Shown here piece by piece: positions 3,276 to 20,828 of a stretch of 32,000 nucleotides of DNA. Location: the NCBI RefSeq assembly GCF_000016745.1, contig NC_009483.1, forward strand, positions 1,320,001 to 1,352,000, in the 5' to 3' direction. Origin of the DNA: Geotalea uraniireducens Rf4 (GTDB taxonomy: Bacteria > Desulfobacterota > Desulfuromonadia > Geobacterales > Geobacteraceae). Within the stretch, counting starts at the first letter, position 1; each line of letters opens with the position of its first letter. The notes under the pieces are model-generated. The model did not search any database. It was given only the letters and a program-made list of their open reading frames with translations, and was not told the DNA's origin. Both the position numbers and the translations under genes were made by a program.

Positions 3276-3971
3276 TTACATACGCACTGATAATTTTCCG
3301 GTGATGTTGATTCCTTCCGGCGCCACGTGGGCCCGGTAGGCCAGGATTTCAACGCCGTTGGCTGCTGCCTGGCGAAGCAGTCTGCCATACTCCGGGTCGA
3401 TTAAATCGGCTGGGGCGACAAATTCGCCATCCGCCCGCTGCACTACAAAGAAATTCACCGCACGGTGTCCCTGTCTGACTACCCCCATCAGTTCGCGGAG
3501 ATGTTTTTGCCCGCGGGTGGTGGCCGCATCGGGGAAGAGTACTGCATTACCCTCGACAAGGGTCACATTCTTCACTTCCACATAGCAGAGTTGATCCGCA
3601 TTGCAAAGGAGCAGATCGATCCGGCTGTTTTCACCATAACGAACCTCCGGGCGGATTGTTTGATACCCCTGAAGTTCAGCGACAAGCCCGTTTTCGATAG
3701 CCTCGCGCACCAGCCGGTTGGGTAGTCCGGTGTTGATCCCGATCCAGCAGCCATCCGCCTTCACCAGTTCCCAGGTATATTTGAGTTTTCTTTCCGGCTT
3801 GTCGCTGCGGGAGAGGAATGCCGGGCTTCCGGGTGTTGCACACCCTTTCATGCTGCCGGAATTGGGGCAGTGGGCGGTGACGATTTCGCCGCTCTCCAGC
3901 TCGAAATCAGCAAGAAAGCGCTTATAGCGGCGGATGAGCGTGGCAGGAAATAAGGGGATTGGCAGTTGCAT
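3276..3971 (-). CDS. sfsA: sugar fermentation stimulation protein SfsA (DNA-binding/nuclease-fold family)
   Basis: Full-length match to the SfsA pattern as recalled: LIRRYKRFLADFELESGEIVTAHCPNSGSM ... RIDLLL ... CYVEVKNVTL ... FPDAATTRGQKHLREL. Confidence 0.93.
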   Translation of the reverse strand: MQLPIPLFPATLIRRYKRFLADFELESGEIVTAHCPNSGSMKGCATPGSPAFLSRSDKPERKLKYTWELVKADGCWIGINTGLPNRLVREAIENGLVAELQGYQTIRPEVRYGENSRIDLLLCNADQLCYVEVKNVTLVEGNAVLFPDAATTRGQKHLRELMGVVRQGHRAVNFFVVQRADGEFVAPADLIDPEYGRLLRQAAANGVEILAYRAHVAPEGINITGKLSVRM

Positions 3972-4026
3972 GGAGATGTTAATATCACGCCGGCGGGTAA
4001 CAATGCAATGAAGAACGTCTGTGAAT

Positions 4027-5304
4027 CTAGAGCCTGACCAGGTGGACTGCGCAGGAGATGCAGGGATCGTAGGCGCGTACCAGCATTTCGAGCTTCAGTT
4101 TCAACTCAGCCTCGTCTGCACCTTCCATTTCCCTGGCAAGGGCCAGCAGATCACGTTCCATGGCTGCCTGGTTGATGGCGGTGGGGGTGATGATGTCTGC
4201 GGCCGTGCAGAACCCCCTGTTGTCGAAGCTGTAGCTGTGGATGAGAACTCCCCTTGGCGCCTCGGTGGCGGCGCTGCCGCTCCCTTTTCGCGGCGCGATA
4301 GAAACCGGTCTGTCAGGTTTTGTCTCGAAGCTCAAAAGGGTGGCTATGATCTCCAGGGAGCATTCTACGGCCAGAATCAGCTCTATGGCCTGGGCCAGAT
4401 TGTTGCCCCGGATGTCCGTGTCAATCAGTTTTTCCCGCGCATCAAGAAAAGCCTGATTAGCCATGGTTGTCAGCCCCATTCCCACATTGAGCCGGGCTAG
4501 TGCGCCGACGATGACGGCTTCTCCTTCGAAGCGGCTTTGCTTGGCATAGGAATGGCCGATGACCTTTTCCGGTAAGGCTTCCCGGTAGTTCGAGGCCATG
4601 AAGGATCGACCGTTGCTTAAATCCAGCCTGTCGCCGAACAGCGGAGATGATGTTTCCCCTTGCACGGCCATGAATATTGAACGCGGCAGAGGGGGGCCGG
4701 GAACGGCGAATGAAGCGAACAGATTGCAAGCTTCGATGGTGTCGGGGAGGATGGTTTCGAGTGCCACTTGTAGTTCCCGTAATCCCGCGTGGTTGACCCG
4801 TTTTCCCATGCCGCCGGGGACGATGTTCACCGGGTGAATAAGCCGCCCCCCTACGGTTTCCTGTATCAAATTGCCAACTCCTTTTATCCGCAGCCCCAGT
4901 TTTAACAGTTCCGGCGCATGTGTTGCCAGGTCGGCAAAGCTTGCGGCATTATAGTAATCGGGCAGGGCAAGGCAGAAAAGATGGAGGGCGTGGCTCTGGA
5001 TATGGCCGCCGTTAACGATCAGTTCCCGGTAGAGGCGGGTCTCCTCGGAGACATCGATCCCCAGGGCATTTTCAACGGCCAGCAGGGACGTTACCCGATG
5101 GATTGTGGAGCAGAGGGAGCAGATGCGGCAGATGATCTCCGGCACCTCCTCGAAGCTTTTCCCCAAGAGGAGCGCCTCAAACAGCCGCGGCGGCTCAGTC
5201 AGCGCAAGTTCGACCCGTTCGGCCCGCTTGCCGTCCATGTAAACCCGGGCGATGCCGTGTCCCTCCACCCGGGTGAGGGGCTTTATCTCAATAACGTTGC
5301 TCAT
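4027..5304 (-). CDS. [NiFe]-hydrogenase large (alpha) subunit, cytoplasmic group 3b/sulfhydrogenase-like
   Basis: N-terminal RVEGHG, the RICSLCSTIH Ni-binding motif and C-terminal DPCISCAVH followed by only LVRL. GGAG RBS 7 nt upstream. Overlaps the small-subunit gene by 17 nt. Confidence 0.9.
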   Translation of the reverse strand: MSNVIEIKPLTRVEGHGIARVYMDGKRAERVELALTEPPRLFEALLLGKSFEEVPEIICRICSLCSTIHRVTSLLAVENALGIDVSEETRLYRELIVNGGHIQSHALHLFCLALPDYYNAASFADLATHAPELLKLGLRIKGVGNLIQETVGGRLIHPVNIVPGGMGKRVNHAGLRELQVALETILPDTIEACNLFASFAVPGPPLPRSIFMAVQGETSSPLFGDRLDLSNGRSFMASNYREALPEKVIGHSYAKQSRFEGEAVIVGALARLNVGMGLTTMANQAFLDAREKLIDTDIRGNNLAQAIELILAVECSLEIIATLLSFETKPDRPVSIAPRKGSGSAATEAPRGVLIHSYSFDNRGFCTAADIITPTAINQAAMERDLLALAREMEGADEAELKLKLEMLVRAYDPCISCAVHLVRL

Positions 5305-14447: not shown

Positions 14448-15674
14448 TCAAGATACTTCCACATGCCTCACCCCTTCCGGCCGCCAGGCCGGGGAGATGA
14501 CGCCGGCCCCCTTCTTCTCGTCGATCAGGCTCCCGTAGGTCACCGTAAAATCCCCGAAACGGTCGTTCACCATATCCATCGCCGCGGTGGCCAGGGCCTT
14601 TTTCCGTTCCTCGACAAAGAGAGGGAGCTGCTCCGTGTGGTGGCGCAGGTTGGTGATACGCACGCCGAGGAGGCGCACCGGCTGGCGGAGGTCTACGCTG
14701 TCCAGGAGCAGCACAGCCGCCTGGTAGATGTCGTCGCTTTGGTTGGTGTAGTTGCCAGCCGTTGCCTGGAGGCTGAAGGTGCTGAAATCGGCGTAGCGTA
14801 TGGTAAGGGTGACGGTCTTGCCCGCCACGGCATGCTTCCTCGCCCGTCTCCCCACCATCTCTGCGAGCCGGAGGAGGATGGCGAGGATCTCGCCTCGCTC
14901 CGTTATGTCCCGTTCCAGGGTCGTGCTGTGCCCCACTGATTTCACGTCCGGAGCCGCCTCGGCGGGGACGACCGGCGCATCATCGATCCCGAGCCCCATC
15001 CGGTGCAGCTTTTCGCCGACCACGCCGAAGCGCCTCGTCAGGATATGTACCGGAAACCGTCCCAGCTCGCCGCAGGTCCTGATGCCGAGCAAGGTGAGGG
15101 TGCGCTCCGTCTGGCGGCCGATGCCGCACAGTTCCCTGATCGGCAGGTTTTCGAGGATGGCGGCGACCCTTTCCTGGTGGATGACGGTCAGGCCGTCCGG
15201 CTTTTTCATCTCCGAGGCGAGTTTTGCGAGGAGCTTGTTCGGAGCAATGCCGATGGAGCAGGTGAGTCCGAAGCGGTGCCTGATGCGGGCCTTGATCAGG
15301 TGGGCGATGCGGGATGCGGAGCCGAAGAGGCGGAGCGAGCCGGTGATGTCGAGGAACGCCTCATCGATGGAGAACACCTCCACGAGCGGGGTATAGTCGT
15401 GGAGCATGGCCATGATCCGGCGGGAGATGGAGGTATATCTGCGGTTGTTGCCGGGAACGCAGATAAGGTCGGGGCACTTTTGCCGCGCCTCGAAGATCCG
15501 CATGCCGGTTTTGACGCCGTACCCCCTCGCCTCGTAAGACGCGGTCAGAATAATCGTCCGCGCAGATTTGCCGGTCACAGCCACCGGTTTGCCGCGCAGG
15601 GCGGGGTCGGTCTGCTGCTCCACGGAGGCGAAAAAGGCGTTCATGTCGATATGGAGGATGGTGCGCTGGGGCAT
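14448..15674 (-). CDS. dinB: DNA polymerase IV (Y-family translesion polymerase)
   Basis: MPQRTILHIDMNAFFASVEQ... and SIDEAFLDITG, typical DinB motifs. ATG 15674 lies 4 nt after the TAA of the upstream MNT gene. The track start at 15836 overlaps that gene and is rejected. Confidence 0.93.
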   Translation of the reverse strand: MPQRTILHIDMNAFFASVEQQTDPALRGKPVAVTGKSARTIILTASYEARGYGVKTGMRIFEARQKCPDLICVPGNNRRYTSISRRIMAMLHDYTPLVEVFSIDEAFLDITGSLRLFGSASRIAHLIKARIRHRFGLTCSIGIAPNKLLAKLASEMKKPDGLTVIHQERVAAILENLPIRELCGIGRQTERTLTLLGIRTCGELGRFPVHILTRRFGVVGEKLHRMGLGIDDAPVVPAEAAPDVKSVGHSTTLERDITERGEILAILLRLAEMVGRRARKHAVAGKTVTLTIRYADFSTFSLQATAGNYTNQSDDIYQAAVLLLDSVDLRQPVRLLGVRITNLRHHTEQLPLFVEERKKALATAAMDMVNDRFGDFTVTYGSLIDEKKGAGVISPAWRPEGVRHVEVS

Positions 15675-15678
15675 GGTG

Positions 15679-16050
15679 TTACATTTCATCTGTTTCTTGG
15701 CCGTCATTTCCGCCTGCGGGGAGGTTCGGTTTTTCATAAAAAACGATGCCGACACGCTGGATATGATCGATGAAGCCAGGGTCATCAATTTGATGCAGCA
15801 AGGAAAGGTCGATTTTATAGGGCAACAGCAGGTCATCCAGTTCAGTTTCGATCTTCAGCAGTTGTGAAAGCGTAACGCCTTTACCCCTGATGGTGAGGTC
15901 GATATCCGAGCCGTTGCGATAATTCCCTTTGGCGCGTGAACCGTACAGTATCACCTGCTCTATCTGCGGATGGGCGGCGAATACCCCGTTGATTTTTTCG
16001 ATGGTGGTTTGTTTTAGGCCGTATTTTAACTTCTCATTGTCATCCGGCAT
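15679..16050 (-). CDS. minimal nucleotidyltransferase (MNT, HI0073-like antitoxin of a HEPN/MNT pair)
   Basis: Carries the NTase motif LYGSRAKGNYRNGSDIDL. It overlaps the upstream HEPN gene by 11 nt. The C-terminal tail PNLPAGGNDGQETDEM looks like an extension. Confidence 0.85.
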   Translation of the reverse strand: MPDDNEKLKYGLKQTTIEKINGVFAAHPQIEQVILYGSRAKGNYRNGSDIDLTIRGKGVTLSQLLKIETELDDLLLPYKIDLSLLHQIDDPGFIDHIQRVGIVFYEKPNLPAGGNDGQETDEM

Positions 16051-16459
16051 TTTTCAGGTCCTGCATTTTCTTTTCAAAAGCCTTTGACAGATCATAATAA
16101 ATGGCGGTCACTTTCTCCGCTATTTCGTCGGCAACATCCTGGTTGTAGGTGTGCGACGTCATATTCCGGCTCTGGATCATCTCCATCCACCCTTCGCCAT
16201 CGGCAATCAGGTTCCTTCGAAAGGCCTCGCGGGTTGCATCACGGGAACCCGTGATCGAGGTGTTTCCCTGGTATTCGAAGTAATCCTTCATGACGTTCCA
16301 GGCCAGCTCATGGGTGAACTTAAAGGCTTGAATAAGACCTAGTTGCTCAAGTTGAGATAGGGGGCGCTGCCGGCTGAGTTCCACCGCTTTGTTCAGTTGC
16401 AACAATGCCTTTTGATAATGACTGAAACGTTGCTGCCAGCGGATGTCTTGGTGGTTCAT
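16040..16459 (-). CDS. HEPN-domain protein (HI0074-family nucleotidyltransferase substrate-binding protein; toxin of a HEPN/MNT pair)
   Basis: MNHQDIRWQQRFSHYQKALLQL... with the Rx4-6H motif in SRNMTSHTY. ATG 16459 is preferred over the GTG at 16474. Confidence 0.85.
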   Translation of the reverse strand: MNHQDIRWQQRFSHYQKALLQLNKAVELSRQRPLSQLEQLGLIQAFKFTHELAWNVMKDYFEYQGNTSITGSRDATREAFRRNLIADGEGWMEMIQSRNMTSHTYNQDVADEIAEKVTAIYYDLSKAFEKKMQDLKNAG

Positions 16460-16506
16460 GGTTTTTCCACGCACAGGTTTTGGAGGATAGGCTTCCAGCC
16501 TGTCAT

Positions 16507-16573
16507 GGCGGCGCAGCCGCCAACGCAGGCGAGACGCCTACGCCCCGTTATTTTTCATGCGAACGGTGGGGCG
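16507..16573. repeat. GC-rich hairpin cluster in the gap between the BsuBI-like gene and the HEPN gene
   Basis: GGCGG-cgcag-CCGCC at 16507-16521 and CGCCCCGTT...AACGGtGGGGCG at 16541-16573. The segment ACGCAGGCGAGACGCCTACGCCCC matches ACACGGGCAGGATGCCCACGCTCC of element 8145-8312 at 17 of 24 positions. Confidence 0.5.
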
Positions 16574-16612
16574 ACACGCTCCGGATACAGATTTCTTCGA
16601 GAAGCGGATCAG

Positions 16613-17116
16613 TTAATACCGTCCGAGAAAACGATCTCCATTGAAATGGATCATGTGCGTCGGCGCTTCCGCTATCCATACATCGGTTTCCCAGGAAATG
16701 TCAATCTCATGGCGGGAAAAGTCCGTCAGCGTGGGAAAGACTGATAAATAGCACCGTCCGGCGATGGAGGAAGCAAACCTTTCCGCCAGTTCTTTGCGCC
16801 GCACGGCGTTTATCGTGCCGTGACCCGTGACGGTATCGATGAGAAGAATCCAGTTTTTCGCAGGGTAATGAATGACCACATCCGGCATTTTGTCATGAAT
16901 GTCAACCTTAATGCCGAGGACAGAAAGTCCCGCTTTGTCGAAGTATCCGCACTTCCCGCCGGTATCGCTCACATACAGGACAACCCCACCCGGCACAAAC
17001 CGGGGGCCGAATTCATCGATGATTTTCATGATAAGCCGGTTGTGCTTCCCCGGCAGCAACTGAATGCTCTTGCCATGGGCGACAGTCAGCGGAATCATTG
17101 GCATTTCTCTTTCCAT
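16613..17116 (-). CDS. stand-alone BsuBI/PstI-type restriction endonuclease catalytic (C-terminal) domain protein
   Basis: LPGKHNRLIMKIIDEFGPRFVPGGVVLYVSDTGGK ... MPDVVIHYPAKNWILLIDTVTGHG ... ISWETDVWIAEAPTHMIHFNGDRFLGRY matches the remembered BsuBI/PstI RE C-terminal domain consensus. The frame is open for only 14 codons above the TTG at 17149, so no N-terminal recognition domain is present. Start is uncertain (17116, 17104 or 17098). A TATAAT lies at 17196-17191 on the minus strand. Confidence 0.7.
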   Translation of the reverse strand: MEREMPMIPLTVAHGKSIQLLPGKHNRLIMKIIDEFGPRFVPGGVVLYVSDTGGKCGYFDKAGLSVLGIKVDIHDKMPDVVIHYPAKNWILLIDTVTGHGTINAVRRKELAERFASSIAGRCYLSVFPTLTDFSRHEIDISWETDVWIAEAPTHMIHFNGDRFLGRY

Positions 17117-17217
17117 GCATTTCCCCGTCAGGCTTTCCCCCCAATGCAAAAGTTGTCGAATCCGGACTTTGAAAGCGTAGGAGGTAGTTAATTATACCTC
17201 ATCATCTTCTTGAATGC

Positions 17218-17243
17218 TACTTAAAGTCTGTAGACTCATAAGC
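17218..17243 (+). promoter_or_regulatory. C-box-like operator pair upstream of the controller-protein gene
   Basis: TACT-TAA-AGTC-TGTA-GACT-CAT-AAGC fits the remembered C.PvuII-type architecture GACT-N3-AGTC-N4-GACT-N3-AGTC with 3 mismatches. It ends 25 nt before ATG 17269. No SD precedes the ATG, suggesting a leaderless or near-leaderless transcript as in known C genes. Confidence 0.55.
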
Positions 17244-17268
17244 ATCATTCCTTCAAGATAGCCCAGTT

Positions 17269-17502
17269 ATGAGAAAGGCGAGTGAAAATATCAGGGCCAT
17301 TCTTGCCGAGAACATACGTAACTTCAGGCACAAGAAGAACTTCTCACAAGAAGAATTGGCTGAAAAATGTGGCCTTCACCGGACCTATATCGGTTCTGTA
17401 GAGCGTGGCGAACGTAACGTTACGTTGAGCACCCTGGAAGTGCTGGCGTCGACTCTCGGCGTCTCCGTACCGGAACTGTTAAGCAAAGATGCCAGGCCTT
17501 AA
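17269..17502 (+). CDS. XRE-family HTH protein of the R-M controller (C-protein) type
   Basis: 77 aa. NFSQEELAEKCGLHRTYIGSVERGERNVTLSTLEVLASTLGVSVPELL matches the GLHRTYIGxxERGERNxSL signature typical of C proteins. Confidence 0.85.
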   Translation: MRKASENIRAILAENIRNFRHKKNFSQEELAEKCGLHRTYIGSVERGERNVTLSTLEVLASTLGVSVPELLSKDARP

Positions 17503-17535
17503 GACCATTTCTTGTGTCAAAAGGACTATAGACTT

Positions 17536-17976
17536 ATGAGCAGCCAACAAACAGCCAAAGTTGCCGCAGAATTACTTGCCAGCACTGACCCTCTCGTTCG
17601 TATTCCTACCAAAAAGGAAAAAAGAAATTTGCTTATGGCTTTTGCAAGCAAAAACAAGGTTATTTACGGAAATGCTTTTGATGCAGTCAGGCTGCAAAAG
17701 AACATTGATTTGAATGATATTGAATCAGTGATACACAATATCGATTGCATAACCTTGATAGAAGTAAAATCAACAAGCAAGGAAAATATAGATGGCAGCT
17801 TTTCCGGATATTTCTTTGGACTGACTACGGCCGAACTATTAGTCGCTCAAAATCTTGGCGACAAGTACCGGTTTATTTTCGTAAATACCTTGACCGGTGG
17901 GTGTATGGAACTGAAACTGAATGAGATATTCGCTAAAGCTAAAGGCATTTATCCGCAATGGAGCATCAGTTTTTAA
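17536..17976 (+). CDS. small PD-(D/E)xK nuclease-fold protein (DUF3883/NOV-C-like), AT-rich
   Basis: NIDCITLIEVKSTSK (D...EVK) followed by FFGLTTAELLVAQNLGDKYRFIFV resembles the restriction-endonuclease-like EVKxT...LTxxE...Y.LY.V pattern. It sits directly downstream of the C gene, the position of R in C-R operons. The region is visibly more AT-rich than its flanks. An alternative TTG start lies at 17512. Confidence 0.6.
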   Translation: MSSQQTAKVAAELLASTDPLVRIPTKKEKRNLLMAFASKNKVIYGNAFDAVRLQKNIDLNDIESVIHNIDCITLIEVKSTSKENIDGSFSGYFFGLTTAELLVAQNLGDKYRFIFVNTLTGGCMELKLNEIFAKAKGIYPQWSISF

Positions 17977-18133
17977 CATTCTGAACTCATTTGTTTTTAC
18001 GCTCCCACCTGCCCCCCTTCACCCGCTCAACCCCGCCCATCAACTCACTCTTCTCCGGGGAGATCGCCTTAAAAAAATGGAATGTAAACTCAAATGGGTT
18101 TGACGGCATCGGCGCCTCGTTGTGAATCATCCC

Positions 18134-18230
18134 GCGCCCTGCCAGGGCGCTTACTATTTATCTTCCATTTATTCCGTGGGTTGCCGCGCTGCGGCTACCC
18201 ACGGCTGATTTCCATTGCCCCTTTGGGGCA
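18134..18230. repeat. cluster of three GC-rich perfect or near-perfect hairpins (REP-like)
   Basis: GCGCCCTG-c-CAGGGCGC at 18134-18150, CCGTGGGTtGCCGCgctGCGGCtACCCACGG at 18174-18204 and TGCCCC-ttt-GGGGCA at 18216-18230. Confidence 0.6.
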
Positions 18231-18287
18231 TGAATCCTTGAATTTGGATTTTTCCGACAATTGATCCCGATCCGGTGATTCTTTGGG

Positions 18288-18689
18288 CTACGTTTCCCAA
18301 TCCTCGATCTTCAAGCCATCCACGCGCGAAAACTCTCTTGAATTGTGTGTCACCACAACCGCTCCGTGTACTGACGCAATGGACGCGATCATCAAGTCGT
18401 TTGGTCCTATTGGCGTTCCCTGCCGGGAAAGTGTCGCACGTATTTCACCATATCTTCTGGCTGCATCATCATCAAAGGTGAGTGACTCGAAGTTGGCAAA
18501 CAGCTCCTCGATAAGCGCCAGGTTTTCCTCCGAACGGCTGCTCTTCAACGCTCCATAGTACAATTCGGCTTTTACAACCGAACAGAATCGCATTGTTACA
18601 GGATCTACAGTCAGGAAATGTTCTTTAACCCGGTTTTCGCCAGGGTTCAGGAAACGAATCCATGCATTCGTGTCAGGGAGAAAGATCAT
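18288..18689 (-). CDS. vapC: PIN-domain toxin VapC
   Basis: MIFLPDTNAWIRFL... with conserved acidic PIN residues and THNSREF near the C-terminus. It overlaps the upstream antitoxin gene by 4 nt. Confidence 0.88.
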   Translation of the reverse strand: MIFLPDTNAWIRFLNPGENRVKEHFLTVDPVTMRFCSVVKAELYYGALKSSRSEENLALIEELFANFESLTFDDDAARRYGEIRATLSRQGTPIGPNDLMIASIASVHGAVVVTHNSREFSRVDGLKIEDWET

Positions 18690-18919
18690 TTGAATTCCTC
18701 ACGGGTTTCATATTCCCCCTGTTCTTCCCGCACTACCGGCTCTCCGGCCCACGCACCGGCAAAACGCGCAAGCTTTGAAGCGGTTGCCTTGACAGCGCGG
18801 GGGGGCGGGGCCTCCTCATCGAGAGGGAGCAGGATGACCTCTACCCGGCGATGCTGCAATTCCTTCGGCATTTTTAATACATCCGGCAACTGTTTATACA
18901 CTTTTCGTATGGCTTCCAT
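18686..18919 (-). CDS. vapB: VapB-type antitoxin (DUF2281-like)
   Basis: 77 aa encoded immediately upstream of vapC. AGGAG RBS. The C-terminal FAGAWAGEPVVREEQGEYETREE is a typical antitoxin tail. Confidence 0.75.
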   Translation of the reverse strand: MEAIRKVYKQLPDVLKMPKELQHRRVEVILLPLDEEAPPPRAVKATASKLARFAGAWAGEPVVREEQGEYETREEFK

Positions 18920-19087
18920 TGTCTTTGCTCCTTTCCAATCGGAAGAAAAACCGGGGCAGCTTCATTTCCAGTCTGCCACATACTCTTCACGGGCGGCATC
19001 ATGAAAAATGAGTCTATCCATGCACCTTGCCAGTCACTCATGCCTGTTCCAGGCAAATGCCCTTTGCTTCCACCCCAATGCCCGCCT

Positions 19088-19525
19088 CTATCCGCCGAAA
19101 GAGTTTTCCACTATCACTGCAAGAAAAGTGGCAGGATCAACGATCCTGATTCCCTGAAATGATTTCAGGTCCTTGAGATGGCGGTCACCGGAGACGATGA
19201 AATCGGCTTTGCCCTCGATTGCGCAGACAAGGTACTTGGTGTCGTCGGCGTCCGCCTTGATGGGATCGAGGGGGAGCGTGCCGGGGGTGATGACGGCTAC
19301 CGCCCTCAGTTTTTTCACAAAATCGGCCAAGTAGTCGTCCGATCTGTTGAGGCGGTTACGGATCTTCGGGTAGGTGAGGACGCGCAGGATTTCATCGCAG
19401 ATCGTCTCGGACAGGAGGAGAATGACCTTTTCTTCCCGGACGAGCCGCATGATTGCATCAGGATTTGAGCCCGGCTTCAGCAGGGCGCTGACAAACTGGT
19501 TGGCATCGAGGACGACCCGCACCAT
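19088..19525 (-). CDS. PIN-family toxin (TIGR00305-like)
   Basis: MVRVVLDANQFVSALL... and DTKYLVCAIEGKADFIVSGDRHL, the pattern of stand-alone PIN toxins. It starts 4 nt after the YefM-like gene. Confidence 0.82.
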   Translation of the reverse strand: MVRVVLDANQFVSALLKPGSNPDAIMRLVREEKVILLLSETICDEILRVLTYPKIRNRLNRSDDYLADFVKKLRAVAVITPGTLPLDPIKADADDTKYLVCAIEGKADFIVSGDRHLKDLKSFQGIRIVDPATFLAVIVENSFGG

Positions 19526-19528
19526 CGG

Positions 19529-19795
19529 TTAGCGCCCTGCCGCACTGACGGCTTCCTCGACATCCTTATCAATGCTCTCTTCGTCGCCACCCGTTGCCTC
19601 TGTCTGCAATTCCTCGTACATGCGAAAGAACTCGTCCCGCTCCCGCTTCATACTCAGGTACTTCTCGATGGGAATGATTGCGACCAAGGGCTTCCCTGCC
19701 CGTTCCACGATGTATTCGTCGGACTTCAGCGCCACCTCGTTCATGACCTGGCCAAGGTTCTGGCGGACTTTGATGGCCGATACCTTTTTTAACAT
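19529..19795 (-). CDS. Phd/YefM-family antitoxin
   Basis: MLKKVSAIKVRQNLGQVMNEVALKSDEYIVERAGKPLVAIIPIEKY is a typical YefM N-domain. GAGGTG RBS. Confidence 0.85.
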   Translation of the reverse strand: MLKKVSAIKVRQNLGQVMNEVALKSDEYIVERAGKPLVAIIPIEKYLSMKRERDEFFRMYEELQTEATGGDEESIDKDVEEAVSAAGR

Positions 19796-19812
19796 TTCTT
19801 CACCTCGTGACA

Positions 19813-19861
19813 GTCATTACAACCATTATGGTCATTATGGTTGTAGTGACTGATTTGTCAA
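19813..19861 (-). promoter_or_regulatory. promoter plus palindromic operator of the YefM-PIN module
   Basis: The 38-bp palindrome GTCATTACAACCATTATGG/TCATTATGGTTGTAGTGAC (19813-19850) pairs 16 of 19 positions. The minus strand reads TTGACA (19861-19856)-N16-CATAAT, which overlaps the palindrome. Confidence 0.55.
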
Positions 19862-19914
19862 GCGGTAAAGAGACCTATGAAATTCGCAAATCGCAAAAGG
19901 TGCATAAATGTAAG

Positions 19915-20196
19915 TCACGTTTCCACCGTCGCCAGCTGCCAGATATGCGTCGTGGCGTTGTAGGTCAGCTCGTAGAGGTCGGCGCCGTCACTGACTGCGA
20001 AGTGCAGGCGGACGGCGCTTCCTTCCCGTTCATCCCAGCAGCAGGTGATCTCCTGCACGGTATGTTTTTGCTGACGCCAGTCGAACCAGACCGGTCTGAT
20101 GCGGTTGCCCGGCCCGAAGATGGCGGCGACCCGGATATGTTCCCGTATTTGTTGTAACATAATTGACGGTTCACCTTTCATGTCTTGTGAGGTCAT
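19915..20196 (-). CDS. small hypothetical protein translationally coupled to lexA
   Basis: ATG 20196-20194 overlaps the lexA TGA 20195-20193 (ATGA). The 93-aa sequence includes ...IRPVWFDWRQQKHTVQEITCCWDEREGSAVRLHFAVSDGADLYELTYN.... An alternative start is M13 at 20160. Confidence 0.6.
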   Translation of the reverse strand: MTSQDMKGEPSIMLQQIREHIRVAAIFGPGNRIRPVWFDWRQQKHTVQEITCCWDEREGSAVRLHFAVSDGADLYELTYNATTHIWQLATVET

Positions 20197-20798
20197 TCAA
20201 GCGAGCGGAAGATGCCGGTTACCTTGCCGATTATGTTCACCTCGCCGGCTTTTGCCTTGACGATGATCGGTTCCATGGCGCTGTTCTCCGGCTGGAGACG
20301 GATACGGTCCTTTTCCCGGAAGAAACGCTTCAGGGTGGCCTCGTCGTTTATCCGTGCAACGACGATGTCGCCGTTGTCGGCTGTTGCCTGGGGACGGACG
20401 AGGGCCAGGTCCCCGGAGCGGATGCCCGCCTCGATCATGGAGTCACCCTTGACCCGGAGGAAGAAGCAGTCAGCACCTTTGACTAGGGCACGGTCAACGG
20501 CGAAATACCCCTCGATGTCCTCGATGGCCGGCTGCAAGGCCCCGGCCCGCACCACTCCGACTATGGGGATGGAGGTGGCCGCGACTGCGCCGACGAGGAC
20601 GATGCCCCGGGAGCTGCCGGCGTTTCTGGTGATGAATCCCTTCCGCTCCAGGGCATCCAGGTGTTTCATGACGCCGAGGGTGCCGTTGATGCCGAGATGG
20701 CCGCCGATTTCCCGCAGGGTGGGAGGATAGCCGTGGCTTTCCAGGTGGGCGGAGATGAACGCGAGCACCATCTGTTGCCGGGGGGTGAGTTTCTCCAT
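20193..20798 (-). CDS. lexA: LexA repressor
   Basis: MEKLTPRQQMVLAFISAHLESHGYPPTLREIG (wHTH), an Ala-Gly cleavage region (VVRAGAL), and S24 peptidase motifs VKGDSMIEAGI and GDIVVARI...ATLKRF. ATG 20798 has a GGAG RBS. The track TTG start at 20819 is rejected. Confidence 0.93.
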   Translation of the reverse strand: MEKLTPRQQMVLAFISAHLESHGYPPTLREIGGHLGINGTLGVMKHLDALERKGFITRNAGSSRGIVLVGAVAATSIPIVGVVRAGALQPAIEDIEGYFAVDRALVKGADCFFLRVKGDSMIEAGIRSGDLALVRPQATADNGDIVVARINDEATLKRFFREKDRIRLQPENSAMEPIIVKAKAGEVNIIGKVTGIFRSLE

Positions 20799-20810
20799 AG
20801 GGTCTCCGTC

Positions 20811-20828
20811 AGTTGTCAAATGATAACC
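20811..20828 (-). promoter_or_regulatory. Geobacter-type LexA box
   Basis: The minus strand reads GGTTATCATTTGACAACT. The published G. sulfurreducens box is GGTT-N2-C-N4-G-N3-ACC (from memory). Only the last base differs. The box sits between the -10 hexamer and the lexA RBS. Confidence 0.6.

Follow-up and report, generated by a model that had tools for sequence, protein, structure and literature searches.

Controller (C) proteins are regarded as timers, delaying the restriction enzyme until the methyltransferase (MTase) has protected the genome. A locus of Geotalea uraniireducens Rf4 raises the question of what such a timer and its nuclease are kept for when no MTase stands beside them. The locus lies in a stretch of 32,000 nt (CP000698.1 from 1,320,001), here called the window, whose numbering is used throughout. 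Three genes were read: BsuBI-C on the minus strand, encoding a BsuBI/PstI-type catalytic domain, and on the plus strand the C gene and R, a putative nuclease gene in the position of a restriction gene. The open reading frames (ORFs) and all other elements named in a preliminary description of the sequence were found where it had placed them, give or take a few bases. That description had left several readings open, namely a modification-dependent (type IV-like) nuclease pair, a split nuclease pair, a novel defence or addiction module and a decayed restriction-modification (R-M) system. The last of these is favoured here. With moderate confidence, the locus is regarded as an MTase-less deletion derivative of a recurrent four-gene R-M module derived from PstI/BsuBI/YenI-type systems, and as such as a disarmed remnant.

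The C gene and the putative system have already been catalogued and annotated and do not constitute a new system. The C gene is listed as Gur068 (CP000698.1 1337269-1337499) in the REBASE putative system GurRORF1135P, and its assignment to the Motif 2 class has been published for this very gene (Sorokin 2009, PMC2632904). New here are the recurrence of the trio, the repeated loss of the MTase with C-R kept, and the unstudied family to which R belongs.

The methyltransferase in the window and in its relatives

The absence of an MTase from the window, as claimed in the preliminary description, was upheld in all parts covered. Pfam searches of about 30 ORFs found none (a few ORFs beyond 28.3 kb lay outside that scan), a motif scan of the window matched shadow ORFs alone, and tblastn of the window with the related MTase family gave no match. 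Sites for PstI (CTGCAG) numbered 8 in the window, where 7.9 were expected; the host thus shows no avoidance of PstI-type sites, which would have been a sign of active restriction.

Relatives of the locus do carry an MTase. A minus-strand gene lies directly after R and convergent to it in about 38 loci, and was identified by Pfam as a gamma MTase of the Eco57I/N6_Mtase type. About 14-19 loci have it in full, while in about 19 it is truncated or broken into fragments. It matches the MTase_II models of PADLOC, including the N-terminal half of PDLC03359, an 840-aa fused MTase::BsuBI protein. MTase-bearing relatives include loci L084, L017 and L020-L026. The decisive locus was L084, which belongs to the clade of the window and was one of only five short loci obtained in a metagenome scan with R of the window; its R is 81% identical to that of the window and its convergent MTase is complete. 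Within this clade, the MTase of L085 is partial, the contig end being reached, and L001 contains two MTase relics (aa 102-123 and 447-467). None was present in the window, L003, L004, L089-L091 and L094. Since close relatives carry the cognate MTase, complete in L084 and as relics in L001, the window is read as a deletion derivative. The preliminary description had named an adjacent MTase in closely related strains as a finding that would speak against a module built without one; besides L084, about half of the trio loci have such a gene, complete or decayed, and of the readings offered at the time it is that of a decayed R-M system which gains by it.

Similarity between the window and L084 ends at the stop codon of R. 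The non-coding stretch which follows (Table 1) corresponds to the position of the 3' end of the convergent MTase in relatives, and tblastn and blastn with the L084 MTase detected no MTase remnant in it. Neither did tblastn and blastn detect remnants of DUF5131 there. In versions of the trio that sit in the lexA island, a gene or gene fragments of DUF5131 (PF07505) lie convergent just 3' of R, namely in L003 (6489-6851), L089 (1755-2561), L090 (5561-5797) and L091 (6202-6942).

Table 1. Features of the locus and its surroundings (window positions)
Feature	Position	Strand	Description
BsuBI-C	16613-17116	minus	167 aa, BsuBI/PstI/SdaI-family catalytic domain; annotated ATG 17116, longest ORF to TTG 17149
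TATAAT	17191-17196	minus	candidate -10 of BsuBI-C, read from the sequence; 21 bp from the C-box
C-box double operator	17214-17245		ATGC-TACTTAAAGTC-TGTA-GACTCATAAGC-AT; OL 17218-17228, spacer 17229-17232, OR 17233-17243
Candidate C-R promoter	17231-17259	plus	-35-like TAGACT 17231-17236, overlapping OR; -10-like CAAGAT 17254-17259
C protein	17269-17502	plus	77 aa, Xre-type helix-turn-helix (HTH); HTH_3 E=4e-16
R	17536-17976	plus	146 aa, stand-alone NOV_C/DUF3883-type PD-(D/E)xK; ribosome-binding site AAGGA 17521-17525
Non-coding stretch	17977-18287		terminator-like hairpin at 18134-18150
dinB	14448-15836	minus	
lexA	20193-20819	minus	

Recurrence of the trio and related architectures

A scan with an R profile, restricted to one genome per species, gave 80 R loci from Verrucomicrobiota, Acidobacteriota, Planctomycetota, Myxococcota, Nitrospira, Thaumarchaeota and other groups. 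The arrangement BsuBI-C (minus), C (plus), R (plus) was found by hidden Markov model (HMM) scans in about 55 of 84 loci, belonging to several phyla. The R sequences form two trio-associated clades of 59 and 14 loci, nearly all members of which have BsuBI-C and C, and many divergent solitary lineages. The latter amount to 21 loci with unrelated housekeeping genes as neighbours, and HTH_3 was found in only 3 of 140 neighbouring ORFs. The gene-neighbourhood analysis that the preliminary description had proposed showed that the trio does recur without an MTase. At least three unrelated contexts were found, namely the lexA island, a thioredoxin/DsbD locus and a glycosyltransferase/radical-SAM locus, and the MTase-less trio is also found among housekeeping genes in other phyla.

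Several further arrangements of PstI-type genes were observed. L096 has a canonical operon of MTase followed by a full-length BsuBI-type restriction endonuclease (REase). L097 (1423-4933) has a YenI-like MTase::BsuBI fusion of 826 aa beside a second, full-length BsuBI-type gene. In L101-L104 (for example L101 4001-6516), an MTase::BsuBI_N fusion (653-698 aa) precedes a BsuBI-C encoded on its own (119-163 aa), and C-R is absent. The fusions beside a free BsuBI-C point to BsuBI-C as probably an MTase-dependent cleavage subunit.

The BsuBI/PstI-type catalytic domain

BsuBI-C is 100% identical to database protein P0001 of 167 aa. Pfam BsuBI_PstI_RE (PF06616) matched with E=2e-49 over model positions 1-153 of 154, so that the catalytic domain is complete, and no Pfam match was obtained for PF17728, the N-terminal winged HTH (wHTH) recognition domain. 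The alignment showed that BsuBI-C begins at the domain boundary, and the type II REase model of PADLOC (REase_II) was aligned in its C-terminal half alone (149-315 of 317). A stand-alone catalytic domain without the N-domain, as first described, is therefore what the gene encodes. The possibility that the N-domain had been moved elsewhere by the insertion of C-R was rejected, as an HMM of full-length relatives found no N-domain in the window.

The catalytic domain is homologous to those of PstI, BsuBI, SdaI and the fused YenI-type R-M proteins, and residues 159-321 of SdaI (2ixs) were matched with E=1.9e-35. The MTase of the relatives likewise belongs to the PstI/YenI type, the gamma class of N6-adenine MTases. 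In contrast to SdaI, BsuBI-C lacks the sequence-reading N-terminal wHTH, is a separate protein and carries changes at conserved positions. The PD motif is kept in the window, but 7 of 44 columns conserved to at least 90% in a stricter alignment are changed (G49S, E93D, K104V, V123L, A125V, E144D and P165R), against a family median of 1. The catalytic PD aspartate was lost in two MTase-less loci, being replaced to give PA in L004 and PN in L007.

Short BsuBI-C proteins of about 162-170 aa recur across genomes. A solitary one of 164 aa, 63% identical to the window copy, was found in L098 (4001-4495) beside ParDE, an MNT gene and a type I HsdR gene, without C-R and without a PstI-type MTase.

Constraint on the three genes

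BsuBI-C deviated at a median of 0 of 43 columns conserved to at least 90% in loci with an MTase (n=21), compared to 6.5 in MTase-less loci (n=14; Mann-Whitney p=3.5e-5, in a test that ignores phylogeny). R of the window showed no deviation at 41 conserved columns, and the median for R was 0 in trio loci both with and without an MTase. Ratios of nonsynonymous to synonymous substitution (dN/dS) were below 1 in all three genes, R having a value of about 0.05, C of 0.15 and BsuBI-C of 0.23; they are rough, as most pairs have a dS close to saturation or past it. Equal conservation of R with and without an MTase, together with purifying selection on C-R, makes an MTase-independent role for the C-R pair likely. 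The window and L004 have R genes 97% identical (dN 0.015) and BsuBI-C genes with a dN of 0.37; the histories of R and BsuBI-C are discordant. Pure neutral decay of BsuBI-C was ruled out by intact ORFs at dS of at least 1 and a dN/dS of about 0.2. From these patterns BsuBI-C appears to be relaxed or repurposed rather than dead.

The R nuclease

R starts at ATG 17536, giving a protein of 146 aa as in homologues, and not at TTG 17512. The proposed PD-(D/E)xK character was borne out: the Pfam family NOV_C (PF13020) matched at a borderline score of 22.5 bits (cut-off 22.1), and D49, E76-x-K78 and E100 are invariant among 73 R homologues. The profile searches thereby back the assignment of both genes flanking C as nucleases, BsuBI-C with PF06616 and R with the borderline NOV_C match. 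An AlphaFold2 model of R (pLDDT 89) had an alpha/beta nuclease-like topology. Foldseek searches of PDB and BFVD gave weak matches with E above 0.02, mostly PD-(D/E)xK nucleases, the top ones being the SPARDA nuclease domain, PA-N, Cas4-like proteins, RecU and Hjc. Homology of R to a solved structure was rejected, as no PDB sequence match was found and none of the Foldseek matches was significant. Its sequence classifies R as a small PD-(D/E)xK protein of the NOV_C type whose D-ExK-E site is intact.

In HmaA, a NOV_C domain with the D/ExK/E signature acts as a nickase on supercoiled DNA (PMC11232893). R and this C-terminal nickase of HmaA, a Snf2-type defence protein, have the D...ExK...E signature and the PD-(D/E)xK core in common. 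Unlike HmaA, R is a stand-alone protein, matches the Pfam family at the threshold, and is coupled to a C protein and not to a helicase. PADLOC gave a weak HEC-02B match for R.

R begins 33 nt past C in the window, and C and R overlap by 4 nt in many relatives. The lineages with a solitary R speak against R being a classical REase. An exhaustive R profile search gave 371 clusters in 1.84 billion representatives. The family is thus small, and it is present in bacteria and archaea. R was also considered as a widely fused domain, and this was rejected because nearly all of the 150 listed among the 371 related clusters stand alone, with 145-210 aa. Equally, R was not supported as a phage or plasmid gene, being present neither in the phage collection nor in PHROGs and giving four distant plasmid matches of 23-31% identity. 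Each of these four plasmid genes forms the end of an MTase-containing operon. Those of L099 (Agrobacterium vitis plasmid, 3908-4402) and L100 (Sphingomonas plasmid, 2388-2876) are the last genes of operons that open with a DNA MTase and a DEAD/DEAH helicase, or with an N6 MTase and a hypothetical protein. The arrangement hints that R-type nucleases may be reused as cleavage modules in other R-M-like systems.

The controller gene and its operator

The identification of a controller gene with a C-box-like operator in the preliminary description was supported. Besides the HTH_3 match, the best PADLOC match of the C protein was Control_protein (E=1.9e-27). The named PDB sequence matches include C.BclI, C.AhdI and C.Esp1396I, while the top match was an unnamed transcriptional regulator (3vk0). 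The sequence thus places the protein among controllers of the C.Esp1396I class.

The predicted operator (17218-17243) reads tACTtaaAGTC TGTA GACTcatAaGC, with outer elements ATG...CAT. It consists of two GACTnnnAGTC-like boxes separated by 4 bp, which is the Motif 2 double-box layout of the C.PvuII/AhdI/Esp1396I class. The core CTACTnAnAGTCTGyAGAC was kept in 12 Geobacter-type loci and in L007 and L023, in contrast to the diverged intergenic sequence on either side of it. The centre of the C-box (17228-17233) is CTGTAG in the window, L003, L089, L091 and L094, and is the PstI/BsuBI site CTGCAG in eight loci (L001, L004, L007, L023, L084-L086 and L090), with no clean correlation to the presence of an MTase. 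If the MTase of the module methylates CTGCAG, methylation of the operator could feed back on C binding.

The control region had been described as 119 bp long. This length holds from TTG 17149, but from the annotated ATG 17116 it is 152 bp. The TATAAT described beside the operator is present on the minus strand (17196-17191), and most relatives have a -10-like hexamer on this strand to the left of their C-box, though its distance from the box varies. A consensus promoter scanner called neither of the divergent promoters, TATAAT having no acceptable -35, and for this reason the promoter assignments rest on reading of the sequence and on conservation. For the candidate C-R promoter (Table 1), relatives carry TATTAT or CAATAT where the window has CAAGAT. 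The start codon of C lies 9 nt past CAAGAT, so that the predicted transcript would be nearly leaderless. This layout agrees with published descriptions of the C.PvuII, C.AhdI and C.Esp1396I operons (PMC2175313, PMC2275141, PMC2691842). Two extended -10 elements surround the C-box of L001, L084 and L086, forming a perfect inverted repeat. This symmetry makes a joint control of both transcription units by C plausible.

The locus fits the C-dependent type II R-M systems Esp1396I, AhdI and PvuII in the sequence class of the controller and in the Motif 2 double C-box over the promoter of a nearly leaderless C-R operon. The MTase of Esp1396I and AhdI is convergent to C-R, as it is in the relatives of the window. 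The locus differs from these systems in having no MTase in the parts covered, in having an uncharacterised NOV_C-like family and no known REase family in the R position, and in the extra divergent BsuBI-type catalytic subunit on the control region.

The genomic neighbourhood

The AT-richness noted for the C-R half was confirmed, with a GC content of 0.36-0.43 at 17400-17999 compared to 0.52-0.66 in the flanks. The GC content of R is about 9 percentage points lower than that of the host flanks in 71 of 73 related loci. The toxin-antitoxin (TA) systems said to surround the module were likewise identified by Pfam as MNT/HEPN, VapC and PIN_3/Phd. MNT/HEPN, BsuBI-C, C-R, VapBC, PIN_3/Phd and a 93-aa ORF form an island bounded by lexA and dinB (14448-20819), and all island genes save C-R lie on the strand of these two genes. 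At the same lexA-linked site, L003, L004 and L089-L091 have the trio together with other TA genes. It is possible that the island invaded a lexA-dinB unit and that it could be read through under SOS control.

The VapBC cassette (18236-18985) is 96% identical in nucleotide sequence to that of L004 (8251-8998), a Geobacteraceae metagenome-assembled genome, while the flanking dinB and lexA are 71-75% identical. This suggests a recent exchange of a single TA cassette. The 93-aa ORF (19915-20196, minus) overlaps the lexA stop codon and gave no match in Pfam and PHROG. An 81-aa gene takes its position beside lexA in L003, L090 and L091, and beside an S24-peptidase fragment in L089. An SfsA gene (3276-3971, minus), also of PD-(D/E)xK fold, adjoins hydrogenase-type genes and has no relation to the module. 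Rfam and tRNA scans of the window gave no match.

Proposed origin of the locus and alternative explanations

The full module runs on one strand from the MTase to BsuBI-C, with C and R between them in antisense. Its gamma-class N6-adenine MTase, convergent to the C-R operon, would have been deleted in the window. C would autoregulate the nearly leaderless C-R operon, the left site activating and the right site, which lies over the -35, repressing. It would probably also modulate BsuBI-C, because the divergent promoter abuts the same operator. BsuBI-C is proposed to be a cleavage subunit that acts in trans and depends on the MTase, or on an MTase::N-domain fusion, for its targeting to DNA. Deprived of the MTase, it would be disarmed, which would account for its tolerance by the host and for its drift at conserved positions. 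C-R would most likely be kept as a tightly autoregulated nuclease or nickase of little sequence specificity.

The heterodimeric type IIS enzyme R.BspD6I has a separately encoded small catalytic subunit. By analogy, BsuBI-C may be likened to it as a small PD-(D/E)xK subunit without recognition, harmless alone and acting with a targeting partner. The putative partner here differs in being an MTase or an MTase::N-domain fusion and not a nickase.

A number of points weigh against the deletion-derivative reading. Six of the 14 MTase-less loci in the deviation test belong to one Geobacteraceae lineage. BsuBI-C is not simply dead, its ORF being intact and its dN/dS about 0.2 in the MTase-less lineage, a ratio subject to the saturation mentioned above. 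An MTase may lie elsewhere in the genome, as the checks extended to the window and, among homologues of the L084 MTase, to the best 120. MTase-dependence of BsuBI-C is probable on the gene architectures and conservation patterns from which it was derived. The role given to C-R alone is a placeholder, and C-type delayed control of a harmless nuclease is left without an explanation. A different view of this pair seems possible rather than probable: C-R, with BsuBI-C as an optional or former partner, might be an MTase-independent nuclease system gated by its controller. In that case a small unit of defence or addiction, horizontally mobile and based on an uncharacterised stand-alone nuclease family of about 371 clusters, would have colonised PstI/YenI-type R-M operons and outlived them.

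The rival explanations were, in falling order of support, an autonomous system of two nucleases, a C-R pair akin to TA systems, an MTase encoded in trans and a dead remnant. The trio could be self-contained and MTase-independent, whether type IV-like, a split nuclease with R targeting or complementing BsuBI-C, or an abortive-infection or addiction system, with C gating both nucleases from the shared operator. The recurrence of the MTase-less trio in at least three unrelated contexts and in other phyla, and the dN/dS below 1 of all three genes, favour such a system; the symmetric -10 elements around the C-box of L001, L084 and L086 would also suit it. However, BsuBI-C drifts precisely where the MTase is missing, even to the loss of the PD aspartate in L004 and L007, and the histories of the two nucleases are discordant, so that the idea of a purpose-built pair is weakened. 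R and BsuBI-C are each also found alone. PADLOC matched nothing beyond the generic REase and C-protein models, bar the weak HEC-02B match for R, and the type IV-like version was not sustained, as neither Pfam nor PADLOC found a modification-reader domain in any of the three proteins. A two-nuclease system is accordingly considered unlikely. The view of C-R as a type II TA-like pair, in which C would be an Xre-type antitoxin or repressor and R a PD-(D/E)xK toxin, next to a restriction-gene relic, draws on the order of a small HTH gene and a nuclease with a 4-nt overlap in many relatives, on the abundance of TA modules in the island and on the persistence of C-R without an MTase. It is considered improbable: the C protein, like its double operator, belongs to the bona fide C.Esp1396I/AhdI class, and the solitary R genes are without an upstream HTH gene.

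The locus could also be part of a classical R-M system that still works, with the gene of the cognate MTase at another place in the G. uraniireducens chromosome. R has a perfect active site by sequence, C-type delayed control makes obvious sense only for a product dangerous to unmethylated DNA, and REBASE carries the locus as a putative system (PMC2632904). Yet about half of the trio loci, in many lineages, have no adjacent MTase, and in 21 loci R stands alone among unrelated genes; each of these cases would need an MTase in trans. Further, no G. uraniireducens protein was among the 120 best homologues of the L084 MTase, and the constraint on BsuBI-C is relaxed. Such a trans-acting MTase is given little credence. 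That all three genes are functionless would agree with the loss of the MTase, the drifting of BsuBI-C and the fast-changing island, but is very improbable in view of ORFs that are intact despite dS of at least 1, dN/dS values of 0.05-0.23, the absence of deviations at all 41 conserved columns of R, and a C-box kept while its flanks diverged.

Implications

The loci form a natural PstI-type series, in which MTase and REase occur as separate genes, as an MTase::REase fusion, as an MTase::N-domain fusion with a free catalytic subunit, and as a version with a C-R insert. The series helps the understanding of how modular restriction enzymes are split and reassembled. Mildly surprising was only that C and R are strongly conserved without an MTase. 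In many genomes that have lost the MTase, strong selection still maintains the timer together with its target gene, and the BsuBI-type partner decays. Should C-R function in its own right, it would be a nuclease under C control without need of an MTase, and would open a first way into a nuclease family that is small, conserved and unstudied.

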